A stretch of 64,000 nt of DNA from NCBI GenBank assembly GCA_021399345.1, contig JAAFKI010000154.1, forward strand, positions 24,498 to 88,497. Reading direction: 5' to 3'. Position 1 is the stretch's first letter. Every line of letters begins with the position of its first letter. Position numbers and translations under genes: made by a program. The stretch is from Candidatus Heimdallarchaeota archaeon (lineage in GTDB: Archaea; Asgardarchaeota; Heimdallarchaeia; Heimdallarchaeales; Heimdallarchaeaceae). Under the pieces are notes generated by a model. That model was not told the origin of the DNA, did no database searches, and saw only the letters and a program-made list of their open reading frames with translations. Shown here one piece after another: positions 657 to 29,226 of this stretch.

Positions 657-3272
657 ATGGATAAAAGTGTAGCAATGTCTCTAAAAATTGTTGGTTTTCT
701 CCTTATTCTTACTTCTGCCTGGGCACCTATATATACAATTACATTTGATGCAACAACAACTGAACCTGAACCAATTATTCTTGTTGGTTCTCAGAGCATT
801 ACTGGAGTCCTTAATAATGTATATTACGAAAATAATCTAGCATTTGTAGTAGATTCAGATACAGGGTTAAGTATTGTAAATGTAACTGATGCAACAACAC
901 CTGAGATTATTGGGACATACAATATTGCAAATGGGGCCAATGGTATATTCGTGAAGGATAACTATGCTTACATTGCAGATACGGTCACAGGATTACAGAT
1001 TGTTAATATTACTGACCCTACTTCACCAACACAAGTTGGTACATATAGTATTACAGGAGGGGCCACTGATGTATTTGTATCAGGAAATTATACTTACATT
1101 GTAGATTCAACAATAGGGTTTCAAATACTAAATATTAGTGACCCAACAACACCAACACAAGAGGGTGTATTTAGTATTTCAGGGGAAATAAACGGTTTAA
1201 TTGTAAAAGATGAATTCGCATATATTGTAGATTCAGTAACTGGTTTACGTATTCTAAATGTTACTGACGCAACTTTACCAAGCTTGGTTGCAACCTTCGA
1301 TGTAAACGAACCAGTATATGATGTAGCTGTTTTAGGAAGTTATGCTTACATTGTTGGTGAAAATATTGGCATACAAGTAGTAAATATAAGTAATCCTCAA
1401 TCTCCCGTTCTCACTAGTTCTTATTATATTGAAGGAAATGTCAATGGAATACATATTGAAAATGAACATGCATATATTGTTGATTCGACTGTTGGAATAC
1501 AAATTGTTTCAATTATAAATCCAGAAGAACTAACTATTGTAGGCTCACAGGAAATTACAGGAGAGATATATGGAATATTCGTAAAAGACGGATATGCATA
1601 TGTTGTAGGATCAGATCTAGAAATCTTTAGAGTAAGACCCAGATCTCAGTATGATTCATCAGGTACACTAGTACGAATCTTCGGTTTCAAAATCGATTAT
1701 AAAATGTTAACTTACAGTAGTGCAAACAACATCGCTCAAGAACGATTCCTGGAAGCTGAAATACCTAGTAGTGTTGTTATTCTTGCTGCAGCTTTGTGGT
1801 TTATACTAATCTTTGCCGTAGTTGCTGTTGTTCTAGGTCAGGTTTTCCAAAGTGGTGGCTTTAAATCGAGGGGTACATTTGCAGATATTGCTGCAGGTAT
1901 TCTTTTACTTATGGCCCTGGTAATCGCTATTCTATCAATGAGCCGGACAATGGCTATAGCAGCTGAAAGATATCAAGCTTTAGTAACGGGACAAACTGCA
2001 GCCTCAACGGCGCCTGTTACGTTTAACCCGAATGATACTTCACCATCTTACTTTGACATTGGTTTAACAGGTTTAATTGGACCTGGATTCTACATATTCA
2101 CTATTGGAATATTAATGATGGTAACTGGTATTTTTCTACCAGTCAATTGGCAACAAACAACCAGCTCCAAAATGTCAAGAAGAATTGGTGATACTGGTGT
2201 TCTTAGATGGGTAAAAAACATAGCATCATTAAGATTAACTACTTACGTTACCCGTAGATTATTAACTCTTATTCCTCTCTTCATTGCAATATGTGTGATG
2301 ACGTTTGTAATGGTAAACGGAATGGGTGATCCAGTAGCCTTGTTACTACTTGGAAAACAAAGAGTAACGGAACAAGATAGGATAAATCTTACTAAAAAAC
2401 TTGGTTTAGATCAGCCCGTTTATGTTCAATTCGTGTCCTGGTTTTACAACCTCATACGTGGTGATATGGGTATAAGTTTCCAATCAGGTCAATCAATTAA
2501 TAATATGATTGGTGGATTAATTTGGGAAACTCTAAAGCTTCAATTAGCATCATTTGCACTAGCTTTGATTATTTCGATACCTTTGGGTGTTTTGGCAGCA
2601 AAGAATCAAAACACATGGATTGATTCAGCCGCTAGTTCTTTCGCACTCTTAGGTCTCTCAATGCCAATTTTTGTGTTTGGTTTATTATTGATTTATATAT
2701 TCAGCGGATATGGTTTAGGATGGTTCCCAGCTGCAAAAGCTCACCGAATACCGACGCCGACGCCTGTATTTAGTCAAACGAACTGGCAATTATTCTGGTC
2801 AGGGCAGTGGGGCGGTGTTGGTGGATTTTGGAATAATGTAGGTGTAAGATTAGGGGATTCACTCCTTCATATGGCTTTACCAACTATTACTTTGACATTC
2901 GCTTTCTTAGCCCTATATACTAGATTAGTTAGGTCAACAATGCTTGAAGTTCTTAGACAAGATTATGTCTTATCTGCAAGAGCAAATGGATTATCTGAAA
3001 GAACCATTACATGGAAACATGCATTCAGAAATGTTTTGATCCCTGTAGTAACCTATATTGGGTTGTTTATGGCTACAGCTTTAGCTGGGGCCCCAATTAC
3101 TGAAACACTCTTCACATGGCCTGGCTTAGGATTCAAGTATGTAGGTGCGGTGCTTCTTTTGGACTTCCCAATGGTCTTGGGTACGACGGCAGTCCTAACG
3201 TTACTTATCTTACTAGGTAATTTGATAACAGATGTTGCTTACGTTGCGGTAGATCCTCGTATAGAACTATGA
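657..3272 (+). CDS. Peptide/nickel ABC transporter permease (DppB/OppB) fused to N-terminal LVIVD-repeat domain and extra TM helices
   Basis: About 7 repeats of YAYIVDS..GLQIVNI.DP..P..VG at aa ~45-326; C-terminal DppB with TRLVRSTMLEVLRQDYVLSARANGL (EAA loop) and DPRI end. Confidence 0.9.
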   Translation: MDKSVAMSLKIVGFLLILTSAWAPIYTITFDATTTEPEPIILVGSQSITGVLNNVYYENNLAFVVDSDTGLSIVNVTDATTPEIIGTYNIANGANGIFVKDNYAYIADTVTGLQIVNITDPTSPTQVGTYSITGGATDVFVSGNYTYIVDSTIGFQILNISDPTTPTQEGVFSISGEINGLIVKDEFAYIVDSVTGLRILNVTDATLPSLVATFDVNEPVYDVAVLGSYAYIVGENIGIQVVNISNPQSPVLTSSYYIEGNVNGIHIENEHAYIVDSTVGIQIVSIINPEELTIVGSQEITGEIYGIFVKDGYAYVVGSDLEIFRVRPRSQYDSSGTLVRIFGFKIDYKMLTYSSANNIAQERFLEAEIPSSVVILAAALWFILIFAVVAVVLGQVFQSGGFKSRGTFADIAAGILLLMALVIAILSMSRTMAIAAERYQALVTGQTAASTAPVTFNPNDTSPSYFDIGLTGLIGPGFYIFTIGILMMVTGIFLPVNWQQTTSSKMSRRIGDTGVLRWVKNIASLRLTTYVTRRLLTLIPLFIAICVMTFVMVNGMGDPVALLLLGKQRVTEQDRINLTKKLGLDQPVYVQFVSWFYNLIRGDMGISFQSGQSINNMIGGLIWETLKLQLASFALALIISIPLGVLAAKNQNTWIDSAASSFALLGLSMPIFVFGLLLIYIFSGYGLGWFPAAKAHRIPTPTPVFSQTNWQLFWSGQWGGVGGFWNNVGVRLGDSLLHMALPTITLTFAFLALYTRLVRSTMLEVLRQDYVLSARANGLSERTITWKHAFRNVLIPVVTYIGLFMATALAGAPITETLFTWPGLGFKYVGAVLLLDFPMVLGTTAVLTLLILLGNLITDVAYVAVDPRIEL

Positions 3273-23516: not shown

Positions 23517-25588
23517 TTTCTCTCCTCCATTATTATGTATCCTAAACTGTTTATCCGCCCAAGTACTGAAGGTGGAATTACAGTAGTGGTATCAAGTTGA
23601 TCAATAATACAAGGTCCGCCTAGAACATTACCTGATAGCAATTTTTGCTTATCATAAACTGGAATATCTATCCATTCTCCATCAAAATTAACCCTTCGGT
23701 TTGTTTTAATCGCATCTTCAGGTGGATTTTCAGAACCCTTAGCTAACTTTGTGAATTCTATTCTTGGTACTTTGCCAACTCCCCTTACAGATAAGTTTAC
23801 TATCTCAACTATGAGTTCTTTATCAAACCAAGAATAATTCTGATTATGTAACAACTGAAATTTTTCAGTTACAGATTCTAGTTGTTTTTTATCAATTGGG
23901 AATGTAACAGATAAGGTTAGAAAGTCAGATTGACCTACATATCTCATATCTAAGGAATAATCAAAGAATTGATCTTCGCTTCCAACCTCTTCACTTGTAA
24001 GAACTTTTTTCAGATCTTCCTCGATTTCCTTAAGTTTTTCATTCATCTCAGTAAAATCTACTTCATCTTTAGTTTGAAGATAGGATTGTGTATGTTCGTG
24101 TTTAATGTCTGAACAGACAAGTCCAAAAGCTGACCAAACACCAGGGAAGGGTGGAATAATAACCCCGTCCATTTCAAGCTCTTGAGCTATTTCCCAAGCT
24201 TGTAGAGGACCAGCTCCACCAAACCCTAGCAGAGCAAAATCTCTTGGGTCTAATCCTCTTTGTATTGTCACAACCCTGATTGCATTAGCAATGTTATTGT
24301 TTAGTATCTTCCTGACAGATAATGCTAGTTCATCTATGGTCACTATTTCAAGAGGGAATGGTGATGACTTGATTTCATTTAATAGATTATTGAGTTGTAG
24401 AGTTGCTTTATCTTTATCTATATTCAAACTCCCTGCAAAATTATCTTGATGAACATAACCCAGATACAGATTTGCATCAGTTAAGGTTACCTTATCTCCT
24501 CCTAGAGAGTAGCACGCTGGACCAGGATTTGCCCCCTGAGACTCTGGTCCAACAGATAATAAACCATCTTTAAAGTCTGCAATTGATCCACCACCACTAC
24601 CTATTGTTTCTACATCCACCATACTTGCAACTAGTGGGAAACCTCTAAATTCTCTTGATCTTAAAACAATTGGACCATTTATTAGAGCTGCAACATCAGT
24701 AGATGTTCCCCCTATATCAAGAGAAACTAAGTGCGTTCTGTTTAAGTGTTTAAGACTATCAGCTGCAGCTAAGACTCCACCCGCAAGCCCAGAATAAAGA
24801 GTTTGTATACCCAATTTACCTATCGAAACAACATCTGCCATTCCAGTATTGGATTGCATAATAAGTAGAGGAGATTCCACTCCTAGATTTATTAGCTTAC
24901 TTTTCAATCTCGATAAGTATGAATTGACCACTGGGCTAACTTTAGCATTAACGATTGTTGTAACAGCCCTTTCATACTCCTTGATTTGAGGACTTATCTC
25001 ATGAGATGTAAAAACATTGTAACCCTTCTCCGAAAAATATTCAGCAACCCTCTTCTCATGTTCTATATTGAGAAAAGAAAAAAGAAAGGAGATGGCTAAG
25101 TTCTTAACTGACTTTGACTCAAACATCTGTAAAGAATTTTCCAACGAACGAAGATCAAGAGATTTGACAATCTTTCCATTACTGTCAACTCTTTCTTCAA
25201 CCTCGTAAAGAACATCTTTTTGAAAATTAACTGGATATTTCTGATTGAATTTAAGATTATAGAGTTCTGACCTTTGTTGTCTTCCAATTTCAACTATGTC
25301 TTTGAATCCTTTTGTAGTTAGGAAAGCAATAGGGGGACATTTGTCCTCTAGAAATGCATTTGTTCCTATTGTTGTCCCATGAACAATCACTTCCACATCA
25401 TTTTTTTGAAAGTGATGCTTTTCCATAATTTCGTTGAAACCAAAGATTATACCCTCACTTGGATCAGTAGGAGTAGTAGGAGTCTTCCATGCAGAAATAT
25501 GTCCGTTAGTTACAATAACATAATCTGTGAAAGTCCCGCCCGTATCAATTCCAATTCTAACTTGTGATGACAGATTGTCCCCGTTCAA
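23513..25588 (-). CDS. Hydantoinase A / 5-oxoprolinase ATP-binding subunit
   Basis: GIDTGGTFTD, HGTTIGTNA, DIGGTSTD, GANPGPACY, FGGAGPL. Confidence 0.93.
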   Translation of the reverse strand: MNGDNLSSQVRIGIDTGGTFTDYVIVTNGHISAWKTPTTPTDPSEGIIFGFNEIMEKHHFQKNDVEVIVHGTTIGTNAFLEDKCPPIAFLTTKGFKDIVEIGRQQRSELYNLKFNQKYPVNFQKDVLYEVEERVDSNGKIVKSLDLRSLENSLQMFESKSVKNLAISFLFSFLNIEHEKRVAEYFSEKGYNVFTSHEISPQIKEYERAVTTIVNAKVSPVVNSYLSRLKSKLINLGVESPLLIMQSNTGMADVVSIGKLGIQTLYSGLAGGVLAAADSLKHLNRTHLVSLDIGGTSTDVAALINGPIVLRSREFRGFPLVASMVDVETIGSGGGSIADFKDGLLSVGPESQGANPGPACYSLGGDKVTLTDANLYLGYVHQDNFAGSLNIDKDKATLQLNNLLNEIKSSPFPLEIVTIDELALSVRKILNNNIANAIRVVTIQRGLDPRDFALLGFGGAGPLQAWEIAQELEMDGVIIPPFPGVWSAFGLVCSDIKHEHTQSYLQTKDEVDFTEMNEKLKEIEEDLKKVLTSEEVGSEDQFFDYSLDMRYVGQSDFLTLSVTFPIDKKQLESVTEKFQLLHNQNYSWFDKELIVEIVNLSVRGVGKVPRIEFTKLAKGSENPPEDAIKTNRRVNFDGEWIDIPVYDKQKLLSGNVLGGPCIIDQLDTTTVIPPSVLGRINSLGYIIMEERK

Positions 25589-25706
25589 AGTTATTCAGAT
25601 TACAGAGAATCTGAACCAATTTAAAGTTTAGCGGAAAACCATTTGACCGTTAGTAACTAAGGAGTGAAAAGTTAGCCAATCTTACCAGAGCACCAGAAAA
25701 AGAACG

Positions 25707-25850
25707 TTTGAGACCAAACTCCTCCCTATCAACCAAGTAGAGCAGCAGTTGGGTGGAAGACAATTGGTGGTAGATATGATTGCCCTCGTTACTTCTTTCG
25801 CAGGAAGGCTACATAGACAACGAAGAGGGAAAGCTCCGATGACGGGATGA
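25707..25850 (+). pseudogene. tnpA: C-terminal remnant of IS607 serine-recombinase TnpA
   Basis: Reads FETKLLPINQVEQQLGGRQLVVDMIALVTSFAGRLHRQRRGKAPMTG*, matching the IS607 helix-E pattern ELVEDL..IV.SF.GRLYG.R; N-terminal HTH and catalytic region missing. Confidence 0.78.
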
Positions 25851-25896
25851 GTTCTTGCCTTTAAATATCATTTTGCGGATTAGATAGTGAGACAAA

Positions 25897-27825
25897 ATGG
25901 TCACACACACAGCAACCAACCTACAAGCTCTCCTTCCCAACACGTCAAAAGGAGTGATGAGAAGTTATCAGGTGGTGCTCAGATGTGCGGACCAAACCCA
26001 ACGAGAAGAGATTAACCAGAGGATAAGAACACTAGAAAACCAGCAAGAACACTTACTCACCCCTCAAATTATCAAGCAAGCTGTGAATCTTTACCGAACT
26101 AATCCGAAAGAAGAATTCTTCACTCGACAACTCTGTAAAACAGTGGGAAAAAGTCCGAATATAGCAGAAAGTGCCTTTCATTGGTTGTACATTGCCATCA
26201 AAGGTAAGATCAACAAGGAGAAGAAAGCACAAGGATTACTCAATTTCTTGTTGAAGAATCCCCAACAGTTAGTAGAATGGGTGATTTTTGGTCGGTCACC
26301 TTATACTGAACGAAGCTTAGAAAATTATTGGAGATTGAAAAGGAGATATATCATTAACCTTCTTACCAGTACGAGAACTCAAACCGATTCTTATTGGAGA
26401 AAGAAGCATAAAACTAATTTTCATGCCCAGATCTTACAACTTAATACTCACCTTCCACACTGTACTCAATGTGAAGTACTTCAAGCTCTAGATGATGCCT
26501 TGTTCTATCATCAGCACGAATTCTCTCTCATCCCACAACTGACCAAGAATCAGCAAGCGTTTCTGAAGAAACTGCAACTTTTGAAAAAGGAACAGCACGT
26601 AGTTGTTCCTTTTCTCACCTCATGGATCAATAGTCCTCAAAATTCTCGATGGAAAAGTCTCAAAGAACTCTCAGAACAACTCACCATAATTATAGGTAAA
26701 CCTTCCCGAAAACTCTTTTCTGTTGTTAGGCAGATAGTCGTTTTCACACTCTTTGATCATTACATGCAGAGTGTCCCTCAGTTAGTTCAGGTACTCCCTA
26801 TATCCAATGTTGTTCCCCCACCATTTAAACGAAAAAAGAAAGGAAGATTGCCAATAAAATTGTTAATGAAGAAAAATTATGTTATCACCCGCCAAGGGAA
26901 TGCCCAAGAAGTAACAGATCAGATCAAGAAGCAAGGCTGGACCGAACTCGGTTTTCCGCAAAAAGGAAAACAAAAGTTAACTGCGCAAGTTCACTTTCCA
27001 CCAAAAGTAGTAGAATATATTAAAAGTGGAGCACACATCAAAGTCCTTCAAGTAAGTAGTGGAAAAGCACCTAGGTTCAAACCTCGGGTGGATGTGGTTC
27101 TTGAAGGAGCACATGCTTGTTTCCATTCCTCTACACTTCTTCATCGTTATCTTAAAAAGATTTCAGCAAAGAAAACCTCTATCCTTGGACTAGATATTAA
27201 CCGCCTAGGCCAATATATGATTGTGTTTAATGTCCCTGTATCACTCCCTCAAGATTTACTCAACTTGACAAAACAATATGAACATCTCAGTACAAAAGTT
27301 ATCGACGAGCTGAACAGAGGGTTTCTCCGAAAACGAAAGGAGTATGATGCTCATGGAAGTTGTAAACTTAAAGGCGAACTCAATCGCGTCTATACTCGTC
27401 GTCATAGACTCCTTAGAGAAATTGTCAGTCTTCTCCCTCACTTTCTCGCAGCAGTGCTGGTGAAAAAGAAATGCACAGTACTCAAGATTGAGCACCTCTC
27501 TACAGACGCTACTGGCACCAAAGGCGCCTTAGCTAAAGCTATTTACACCATGCCCGATAGTTTGCTCATTTACAAGAAAGCGGTTTGGTTAGCTTCCCTA
27601 GAATTAGGCTATGATATTCTCTTAAAAACTGTTCCTCCCTATCACACTAGTACTCGTCACTACAAGTGTGGAGGTACTGTTGTTCGTCAACCAGGACAAT
27701 ATGACATAGCTCTATGTAAGAAGTGTAACCAACAGATTAATACACATAGTAATGCTGCTCACAATATCGCTTCCCTTCCAGGTACTCTCCTTCCTAATGA
27801 TTCCTTCCCCTCACCGCACGTGTAG
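25897..27825 (+). CDS. tnpB: Large TnpB-family RNA-guided RuvC nuclease (642 aa)
   Basis: RuvC-I ILGLDIN, RuvC-II KIEHL, TS..HYKC...CKKC zinc ribbon, RuvC-III-like HSNAAHNIA; directly downstream of tnpA remnant. Confidence 0.85.
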   Translation: MVTHTATNLQALLPNTSKGVMRSYQVVLRCADQTQREEINQRIRTLENQQEHLLTPQIIKQAVNLYRTNPKEEFFTRQLCKTVGKSPNIAESAFHWLYIAIKGKINKEKKAQGLLNFLLKNPQQLVEWVIFGRSPYTERSLENYWRLKRRYIINLLTSTRTQTDSYWRKKHKTNFHAQILQLNTHLPHCTQCEVLQALDDALFYHQHEFSLIPQLTKNQQAFLKKLQLLKKEQHVVVPFLTSWINSPQNSRWKSLKELSEQLTIIIGKPSRKLFSVVRQIVVFTLFDHYMQSVPQLVQVLPISNVVPPPFKRKKKGRLPIKLLMKKNYVITRQGNAQEVTDQIKKQGWTELGFPQKGKQKLTAQVHFPPKVVEYIKSGAHIKVLQVSSGKAPRFKPRVDVVLEGAHACFHSSTLLHRYLKKISAKKTSILGLDINRLGQYMIVFNVPVSLPQDLLNLTKQYEHLSTKVIDELNRGFLRKRKEYDAHGSCKLKGELNRVYTRRHRLLREIVSLLPHFLAAVLVKKKCTVLKIEHLSTDATGTKGALAKAIYTMPDSLLIYKKAVWLASLELGYDILLKTVPPYHTSTRHYKCGGTVVRQPGQYDIALCKKCNQQINTHSNAAHNIASLPGTLLPNDSFPSPHV

Positions 27826-27845
27826 GGGACCCACACAAACGACGG

Positions 27846-27989
27846 TTAAACGCCCCCTGGCAAGTTTAACCAAGTTTCATAACGTGCGTTATAAAATTCA
27901 AATTTCTTCTGCTCTGCTTTATTCTCTAAGGTATACTTCCAATCCTTCTCAACTTTCTCCATTCTTGCTTTAGTCTTATTTTCATTCAT
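27846..27989 (-). CDS. Small hypothetical protein (47 aa), not in ORF track
   Basis: MNENKTKARMEKVEKDWKYTLENKAEQKKFEFYNARYETWLNLPGGV*; GGTGA RBS 6 nt upstream of ATG and TATA box at 28089-28096. Confidence 0.55.
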   Translation of the reverse strand: MNENKTKARMEKVEKDWKYTLENKAEQKKFEFYNARYETWLNLPGGV

Positions 27990-28230
27990 TATCTATCACC
28001 TATACTACTCACTAATTCATCTAATTTCAGATGCTAGGCTCATGTCACCAGCAGTGACTTTCTCCCTGTATCCTACAAGTAAGCTAGATATAAAAACACC
28101 AAAAACAAATTGCGAAGAACTGTTGAAAGTTATACTAGTATTTTCTTAATTCTAGAAATTGTCAAAGAACAAGCATTAAAAATCAAATGTTCCCATTTTT
28201 ACCATCAAAAATAATTCTGAGCTGAAATCG

Positions 28231-29226
28231 ATGCCATACTTTTTACGAAAAATCTGGAATGACTCAATCTTTCAAGGTAAGAACAAAAAACGGAATTACT
28301 TTGAAGGATGGTATTTCAAAATAATAAATTCTACAAAAGATGAGATTTATGCAATTATTCCTGGGATTTCCTATGATAATAATGGAAATGGAATAGCTTT
28401 TGTTCAATTCTTTGATGGAATAAATGCAGAAACTACTTTCTTTGAATTCGATATCTCTGCGTTCAAGTTCTCAAAGAAGGAATTCGCTGTTGAAATCGGA
28501 GAAAACTATTTTAGCTCTGAAAAGATTAAACTCAGTCTATCTTCAGAGGGAAAAAAAGTGGAAGGAGAGATTGGAATAGGAGAATTAGTACCTTGGTCTA
28601 AGAAGAAGTTATCTTTAGGTGTAATGGGTTGGTATAAGCTAGTTCCATTTATGGAATGCTATCACGGCGTTCTAGGTTTTGATCATTCTATTGAAGGAGA
28701 ACTTTCAGTAGATGGAAAGAAAATCGATTTCACAAATGGCAAGGGGTATATGGAAAAAGATTATGGTAAAAGCTTTCCTCACTATTATATCTGGATGCAA
28801 TCAAATACTTTCGATAAAGAAGGTGTTTCTCTCATGGCTTCATATGCAAAAATACCTTGGTTAGGTAATTCTTTTGATGGCTATCTAGTAGGTTTTAGAC
28901 ACAATAAAGAACTATACAGATTTACAAATTATACTGGAGCAGAAGTTACCAAACTTCAACTAAAAGAAAAGGAGATTATACTTCATGTCACTGATAAGAA
29001 GTATAGGGTTGAAATAACGGCTTTTAAATCCAAAGCAGTTAATCTTCATTCTCCAATTGATGGTTCTATGGTCGGAAGAATTTTGGAAAGCAATACTTCT
29101 GAACTTAAAGTTCGTTTAATCAAGCTCAGTAAAAAAGAGGGAGAAAGTATACTTTTTGAGGGAACTGGCAAAAATGCAGGTCTAGACATAGGTGGAAGGG
29201 TTGAAGAAATAAAGGAAATTTATTGA
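28231..29226 (+). CDS. Tocopherol cyclase-family protein
   Basis: NYFEGWYFK, IIPG, PFMECYHG, GYMEKDYGKSFP..YIWMQSN. Confidence 0.82.
   Translation: MPYFLRKIWNDSIFQGKNKKRNYFEGWYFKIINSTKDEIYAIIPGISYDNNGNGIAFVQFFDGINAETTFFEFDISAFKFSKKEFAVEIGENYFSSEKIKLSLSSEGKKVEGEIGIGELVPWSKKKLSLGVMGWYKLVPFMECYHGVLGFDHSIEGELSVDGKKIDFTNGKGYMEKDYGKSFPHYYIWMQSNTFDKEGVSLMASYAKIPWLGNSFDGYLVGFRHNKELYRFTNYTGAEVTKLQLKEKEIILHVTDKKYRVEITAFKSKAVNLHSPIDGSMVGRILESNTSELKVRLIKLSKKEGESILFEGTGKNAGLDIGGRVEEIKEIY

Follow-up and report, generated by a model that had tools for sequence, protein, structure and literature searches.

A conserved histidine in place of the third RuvC aspartate in the TnpB of a recently mobile IS607-family element from Heimdallarchaeota

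TnpB proteins whose third catalytic RuvC aspartate (RuvC-III) has been replaced by histidine are already known as a clade and predicted to be active (Altae-Tran et al. 2023, PNAS; PMC10691335). That census describes six branches with altered RuvC-III, some of them archaeal. The largest, RIIIr-4, has RuvC-III Asp changed to His, has no C4 zinc finger, and includes archaeal MazE/RHH-linked TnpBs. Clades with altered catalytic residues were argued to be active from their conservation (PMC10691335); cutting by TnpBs with His for the third RuvC Asp is so far a prediction. Here we describe such a tnpB gene, carried by an IS607-type element in a 64,000-nucleotide stretch of DNA (the window) from Candidatus Heimdallarchaeota archaeon, contig JAAFKI010000154.1. 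Our literature search found no paper that joins TnpB with Heimdallarchaeota, and TnpB, Asgard archaea, and IS607 are joined only by the PNAS census.

The second point of comparison is the IS607 TnpB-omegaRNA system, for example ISXfa1 (Yoon et al. 2023, PMC10711439). There, as in the family of the window element, a tnpA gene for a serine recombinase with a MerR helix-turn-helix (HTH) lies upstream of tnpB. In both, the 3' end of tnpB is part of the RNA scaffold, which stops at the right end of the element, and flanking DNA provides the guide. The motif targeted by the transposase is also the target-adjacent motif (TAM), which in the window element is a candidate only. Unlike the ISXfa1 type, the window protein has D-E-H rather than D-E-D as its predicted catalytic set, D-x-N rather than D-hydrophobic-G in RuvC-I, ~280 extra helical residues, and an archaeal (Asgard) host.

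The gene and its motifs are as follows, by window position.

25897-27825, + strand: tnpB coding sequence, 642 amino acids, TnpB/Cas12 fold, frame open throughout.
25993-26811, + strand: expanded all-helical domain at the REC position, residues ~33-305, from DSSP of predicted models.
27193-27195, + strand: codon of RuvC-I D433, motif GLDINRLG (D-I-N).
27490-27492, + strand: codon of RuvC-II E532, motif VLKIEHL, at the canonical position 56 residues before the zinc ribbon.
27658-27726, + strand: zinc ribbon H588-x2-C591...C607-x2-C610 (HCCC), from ligand motif and conservation.
27745-27747, + strand: codon of H617, in the place of the RuvC-III Asp, motif NTHSNAAHNI.

An initial annotation, made from the letters and their open reading frames (ORFs), had reported a 642-aa ORF with the RuvC-I Asp, the RuvC-II Glu, His in HSNAAHNI, and an HxxC/CxxC ribbon. 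All of these are present. The ~430 residues that it placed before RuvC-I are 432 by our count, all preceding D433. Its description of the protein as oversized holds against typical TnpBs of 350-450 aa but not within the family, in which ~640 aa is normal. Set beside the D-E-D triad, the protein has the RuvC-I Asp and RuvC-II Glu and lacks the RuvC-III Asp.

On the strength of its predicted structure, the 642-aa protein is a member of the TnpB/Cas12 superfamily with a WED-REC-RuvC-TNB fold. Library matches (Pfam, NCBIfam, and PDB chains) are limited to the last ~130 residues, and NCBIfam NF040570 (Cas12f2/TnpB) scores 20.7 against a cut-off of 100. Sequence similarity to solved chains reaches E 1e-5 to 1e-7. 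In HMMER and profile searches, H617 aligns to the catalytic Asp of N-A-D-x-N-A-A in 8hr5 (Cas12f), 9nzp (TnpB), and 9nzq, and HMMER aligns E532 to the RuvC-II Glu of the same chains, Cas12f 8hr5 included. An AlphaFold2 model built from 96 relatives has a mean predicted local distance difference test score (pLDDT) of 86.5 and matches 8hr5 with a Foldseek E of 4e-10. VIA-align over residues 19-633 gives Z-scores of 13.3 for 8dzj, 12.9 for 8iaz, 11.7 for 8h1j, and 9.8 for Fanzor2 9b0l. The comparison with TnpB, Cas12, and Fanzor profiles and structures proposed in the initial annotation therefore returns a Cas12f/TnpB fold over residues 19-633.

The best structural matches are Cas12f and the TnpBs of ISDra2 and ISFba1 (8dzj, 8hr5, 8iaz, 8h1j; Z 11.7-13.3 over 340-370 residues), which share with the window protein the order WED-REC-WED-RuvC-zinc ribbon. 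Only these 340-370 of the 642 residues superpose on Cas12f/TnpB chains. The window protein differs from them in its much larger REC-position domain and in having no CRISPR array. In the model, an all-helical block of ~280 extra residues sits at the REC position, after the first WED strand and ahead of the other WED strands, as the predicted expansion of a REC-like region had it. The domain folded in isolation has a pLDDT of 95. No convincing solved relative of the isolated domain was found, the best Z of 6.1 being at noise level for helical proteins.

Judged by its distribution among relatives, His617 is the conserved norm of the family and not a private lesion, and it is taken as the ancestral third residue of the family's predicted active site. 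The family comprises ~140 clusters at 90% identity, usually ~640 aa long, and a search of 1.84 billion 50%-cluster representatives yields just 264 matches at E<=1e-3. Its hosts are almost all named Heimdallarchaeota metagenome-assembled genomes (MAGs), along with isolated Thorarchaeota and other Asgard records; no relative was found among IMG/VR viral contigs. Every full-length close relative that retains the motif has the His. Among distant cluster representatives, position 617 is H in 112 of 118, Q in five, and D in one. D433 and N435 are each invariant (100 of 100), position 532 is E in 104 and D in 15 of 120, and position 588 is H in 105 and C in 16 of 121, with the three ribbon Cys ~100% conserved. 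D433, E532, H617, N435, and N-A-A are the best-conserved positions in a family that diverges to ~25% identity.

The window genome (G000), whose assembly is 88.6% complete, was compared with 24 other genomes of its genus (25 with G000), and it also provides an internal control. It holds 21 TnpB-like genes, and the 17 outside the family all read (N/D)-A-D-x-N-(A/G)-A at this motif. Most of these canonical-Asp genes are without a zinc ribbon, and three have C4.

The ratio of nonsynonymous to synonymous divergence (dN/dS) has a median of 0.14 over 231 pairs of copies, with dS ~0.7 or more, and for the window copy against each sibling it is 0.12-0.17. These values bear on the idea that the gene is a decaying relic in which His is a disabling mutation. 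The adjacent tnpA is indeed destroyed, and several relatives in other genomes are truncated or contain stop codons. However, the window copy has a full-length open frame under purifying selection against every sibling. It shares its His with the family as a whole, it retains both transposon ends along with the promoter and the RNA, and it inserted recently. His conservation and dN/dS together rule out a pseudogene, and we give this explanation almost no weight. A His private to this copy, with other signs of decay, had been named beforehand as the outcome that would count against a functional reading; the His proved to be family-wide and without such signs.

RuvC-I of the window protein has D-x-N in place of the usual D-hydrophobic-G, with an invariant Asn435 (27193-27201). 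N435 may be part of an altered active site.

A different arrangement would be an active nuclease whose site is completed by another acidic residue, such as D603 in the zinc ribbon, D554, or E508, leaving His617 a structural role or that of a general base. D603 is kept by 100 of 118 relatives and D554 by 86 of 124, and moved RuvC-II catalytic residues are documented in TnpB and Fanzor. However, an equivalent of D603 is present in the canonical D-E-D Cas12f chains 8hr5 and 9nzq, so it is no compensating novelty, and D603, D554, and E508 are each less conserved than H617. D603 was set aside as the relocated catalytic Asp for these two reasons, and we regard relocation in general as improbable.

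On the published description, the window family is a candidate member of RIIIr-4. His replaces the RuvC-III Asp across the clade in both. The window ribbon is HCCC and not C4, yet it has four ligands, and Cys comes first in 16 of 121 relatives. RIIIr-4 includes MazE-linked members, and weak MazE-like matches occur in two giant relatives of the window family. The window family differs in its length of ~640 aa, its four-ligand ribbon, and its linkage to a serine recombinase instead of MazE, and it is confined, within the searches made, to Heimdall-group and a few other Asgard MAGs.

Two groups of relatives lie outside the main set. The giant relatives P0175, P0182, P0144, P0157, and P0185 (1.2-1.8 kaa) bear the family's C-terminal RuvC/zinc-ribbon module, and the weak matches in two of them are MazE/AbrB-like and fall near residues 650-700. 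A second subfamily (L097, L104, L106, L111-L125) is 38-48% identical, also has His, and occurs in the same Heimdall genomes. Its genes stand solo, without tnpA of the type found with the window element.

Pro-Fanzors (Yoon et al. 2023, PMC10711439) are marked by D-P-G in RuvC-I and by an alternative Glu placed six residues ahead of the zinc finger. The window protein resembles Fanzor2 and pro-Fanzors in its IS607 context and in being larger than typical TnpBs. However, its RuvC-I is D-I-N, residues 582-587 read Y-H-T-S-T-R without Glu, and E532 lies 56 residues before H588. It is no nearer to Fanzor2 (9b0l, Z 9.8) than to Cas12f. With both signatures absent, pro-Fanzor membership was rejected. 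The kinship to Fanzor2 that had been suggested finds no support, since D-I-N replaces D-P-G and the Glu is canonical, and the lineage is separate from the pro-Fanzor lineage.

The element around the gene has the following parts.

~25653-27888, + strand: whole IS607-type element, with ends, tnpA remnant, tnpB, and RNA scaffold.
25653-25697, + strand: left end (LE), including CAATCTTACC at 25677-25686; aligns with the LE upstream of tnpA in intact siblings.
25698-25844, + strand: tnpA remnant, the last ~49 codons of a serine recombinase, from a tblastn-type match.
25860-25867, + strand: TATA-like box TTTAAATA, 37 nt before the tnpB ATG, kept nearly without exception across the 25 copies of the 5'-end alignment.

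Intact siblings (L011, L014, L018, and others) encode a TnpA of ~200 aa directly upstream of tnpB, with a MerR HTH (PF00376) and a Resolvase domain (PF00239, E 1e-21 to 1e-24). Because this is the IS607 TnpA architecture, the element belongs to IS607, as had been proposed for its tnpB. In the window copy, the 147-nt remnant matches residues 164-212 of the intact L011 TnpA at 61% identity (E 3.3e-11), and ~500 bp of tnpA is deleted between the LE and the remnant. Read in this way, the window copy is a non-autonomous IS607-family element that lost tnpA by internal deletion. The decay of tnpA beside an intact tnpB, noted at the outset, is borne out by this remnant and by the dN/dS of 0.14.

DNA similarity between copies spans from upstream of the ATG to ~65 nt beyond the stop codon, and in many copies the upstream DNA is the 3' end of a gene. 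Upstream of the TATA-like box, sequence diverges in tnpA-less copies; the box is presumably the archaeal promoter of tnpB. The AAACTT...CTTGCCA motifs of the LE are found again, inverted, in the right end. Near-full tnpA is present at 11 among 79 further loci. In G000 itself, tnpB is intact in four diverged copies, and tnpA survives only as three remnants.

Comparison with related genomes defines the insertion site.

25646-25652, + strand: target motif ACCGT (25646-25650, candidate TAM) and left CGTTA copy (25648-25652), from empty-site comparison.
27887-27891, + strand: right CGTTA copy, with the right-end crossover within it, from the junction compared with empty sites.
27889-27911, + strand: predicted guide, the flanking DNA after the scaffold; copy-unique sequence, length probably ~16-22 nt.

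A sister genome, G009, holds the empty site, with the two flanks contiguous and identical at 814 of 814 and 252 of 253 positions. The same flanks are contiguous, and the site therefore empty, in six further genomes of the genus. The empty site reads ...TTTGACCGTTATAAAATTC... in G009 and is also given as ...GACCGTTATAAAATTC..., and CGTTA stands at both junctions of the filled site. An empty site with near-identical flanks argues for recent movement of the element. All 24 other genomes of the genus hold matches, 1-14 each, many of them cut off by the end of a contig or interrupted by stop codons.

In about 20 independent insertions, the consensus to the left of the LE is N-A-C-Y-G-T, and in those insertions the right end reads ...GTG-Y-G-T; TGYGT differs from the candidate TAM at two positions. 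Y is identical at both ends in 15 of 18 loci (11 C-C and 4 T-T, with 3 exceptions). The shared Y places the crossover within YGT and makes ACYG(T) the candidate TAM. Beyond ...GTGYGT, sequence is unique to each copy, and the guide of the window copy is the empty-site flank next to ACCGT in G009. No second genomic target of 18 nt or more was found for the four G000 guides. Separately, the right-end Y covaries with its partner in an RNA helix. From these alignments, the choice of target appears to be coupled to the recombination core and to the structure of the RNA.

The RNA in question lies at the 3' end of tnpB.

27763-27888, + strand: omegaRNA-like scaffold with its core at 27804-27888, from conservation and covariation.
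27815-27821 with 27882-27888, + strand: long-range pseudoknot-type helix, with three compensatory pairs.
27837-27840 with 27874-27877, + strand: enclosing stem of the scaffold, from a 26-copy alignment.
27844-27851 with 27864-27871, + strand: scaffold hairpin, from the 26-copy alignment.

The last ~60 nt of the coding sequence and the 63 nt past the stop codon are conserved above the rest of the gene, and the synonymous sites are nearly frozen. Conservation drops sharply at the scaffold end (27888), and about half of the scaffold is downstream of the stop codon. In the 26 copies, the proposed structure has 97.3% of its cells paired, and both partners have changed in six pairs, against 1.7 in shuffles (0 of 500 reach six) and 0-1 in slid controls. 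G-U pairs assign the scaffold to the + (sense) strand. A further possible hairpin, CCCCU/AGGGG, is invariant and hence gives no covariation signal. An outer stem from RNAalifold, which pairs the N-A-A codons with the right end, shows one-sided changes only, and the 27815-27821/27882-27888 helix was preferred to it. No Rfam family matches 25500-28300 at E<=1. The guide RNAs in Cas12f and TnpB complexes likewise have a pseudoknot beside the guide. Production of omegaRNA by TnpB from its own mRNA is known (PMC10278001), and the window tnpB transcript is probably processed in the same way.

We consider that the window TnpB is probably an active D-E-H RNA-guided nuclease that serves retention or homing of the transposon. 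This is favored because D-x-N/E/H is strictly conserved, the gene is under purifying selection and linked to a live transposon, and the guides are flanks. The last active-site position of active PIWI nucleases, which is topologically equivalent, is taken by His (D-E-D-H) or Asp. By analogy with the family, a MerR-HTH serine recombinase from another copy would move the element into ACYGT, with crossover within YGT. The 3' part of the tnpB transcript would then be cut into an omegaRNA with ~20 nt of flank as guide, and the TnpB-omegaRNA complex would recognize ACYG(T) and the flank, which is the empty site. A cut at the empty site could let recombination restore or spread the element. D433 (in the invariant D-x-N), E532, and H617 would form the active site, in which His most likely joins metal-dependent cleavage.

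It is also conceivable, although in our view unlikely, that His abolishes cleavage and that the protein is RNA-guided for binding only, to the benefit of the transposon or the host. It might mark the empty site, recruit the recombinase, or repress a gene, as in TldR or Cas12k. The change from Asp to His takes away one canonical metal ligand, tnpB outlasts tnpA in all four G000 copies, and the literature we found holds no assay of cleavage by D-E-H TnpBs. TnpB/Cas12 derivatives that have lost nuclease activity and taken on new roles are known (PMC10691335). Such dead derivatives usually lose several catalytic residues, however, whereas here the catalytic positions are the best conserved in the family. 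The gene rides an active transposon that is multi-copy and polymorphic, its guides match only their own flank, and it has no conserved partner gene. Between D-E-H catalysis and binding alone, the sequence evidence leans to catalysis.

The nearest described cases of guided binding are TldRs and other domesticated dead TnpBs. The window protein shares with them an altered RuvC-III residue and the lack of a working tnpA beside tnpB. In contrast to them, the window family carries a conserved change at one catalytic residue only; its element is multi-copy and mobile, has no fixed neighborhood, and carries a guide that matches no distant promoter. A TldR-type assignment was rejected on the 1-14 matches per genome, the polymorphic insertion, and the lack of a second guide match. 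The kinship to domesticated RuvC-dead regulators entertained in the initial annotation is likewise not upheld, given a multi-copy element that is polymorphic between near-identical genomes, purifying selection on D, E, and H and on the RuvC/zinc-ribbon region as a whole, and a guide that equals the flank.

Some observations weigh against an active nuclease on a mobile IS607 element. No experiment on any D-E-H TnpB was found in the literature. Intact tnpA was not found in the 88.6%-complete G000 assembly. In the five closest genomes, no copy is more than 81% identical to the window element; the donor is therefore unsampled or lost, which is compatible with cut-and-paste movement. Finally, Pfam PF07282 (TNB) scores 25.5 bits (E 1.5e-5) with hmmscan, just below its 26.3-bit gathering score, although in a six-frame genome search it reaches 29.0 bits, above the cut-off.

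The locus directly supports the fold and the motifs, the conservation of these throughout the family, purifying selection, the IS607 architecture, a recent move of the element, the structure of the RNA, and the point at which scaffold gives way to guide; cleavage activity, TAM, guide length, and RNA processing are predictions. It documents recent IS607 transposition in Asgard archaea. It also supplies a clean test case for the predicted activity of His-bearing TnpBs: a strongly selected protein, a covariation-backed scaffold with an exact guide boundary, a predicted TAM (ACYGT), and a natural target in the empty site of the sister genome. If the enzyme is active, the known RuvC chemistries would be broader, and a distinct scaffold would be available for engineering.

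A second region of tnpB shows constraint at synonymous sites.

26640-26925, no strand assigned: excess synonymous-site conservation over codons ~250-343, with codon identity 0.71-0.85 against 0.33-0.46 expected.

Synonymous constraint in this zone of ~290 nt is as strong as in the omegaRNA overlap. The zone contains an invariant hairpin, ACACTCT(15 nt)AGAGTGT, at ~26746-26774, and a TATA-like TTTAAAC at 26823-26829, 37 nt before the near-invariant Met324 codon (26866). Many database gene calls of relatives begin exactly at Met324. Consensus folding gives z -4.8 (+ strand) and -4.1 (- strand), with control regions at ~0, and no alternative ORF spanning the zone was found. Possible roles for the zone are those of an internal promoter, an RNA element, or a recombinase site.

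G000 also contains mini-elements of ~420 bp that lack tnpB, at C41:~109790-110176 (L126/L128) and C16:~2710-3097 (L127/L146), with relatives L129-L135, L144, and L145. Each has, in order, an ACCGT flank, the same LE, a T-run, a TATA box, a conserved non-coding interior of ~200 nt in which compensatory changes can be seen, the same 85-nt scaffold, and a unique flank. They occur full-length or at E<=1e-28 in 9 of the 25 genus genomes (G000 included), at 75-98% identity. An nhmmer comparison of the interior with full elements gave nothing significant (E above 2). The 11-mer TGTCCCTCAGT is common to the interior and full elements and is a lead only. By their layout, the mini-elements look like stand-alone guide-RNA genes that possibly use TnpB in trans.

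These features can be combined into a broader proposal, which we put forward as speculation with little expectation that all of it holds. D-x-N/E/H would be a working alternative RuvC chemistry, for example with another metal or strand preference, and the RNA economy would be more elaborate than that of known TnpBs. The 26640-26925 zone would act as an internal promoter or RNA and perhaps yield a REC-less 319-aa isoform from Met324, and the ~420-bp mini-transposons would express guide RNAs and borrow TnpB in trans.

The scaffold recurs at assembly breaks as well. Five G000 contigs (C119, C109, C27, C104, and C107) start or stop inside the right-end scaffold, and the same 82-nt stretch is found unchanged in three of them. 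This points to a repeat subfamily of near-identical copies that was amplified recently and interrupted the assembly.

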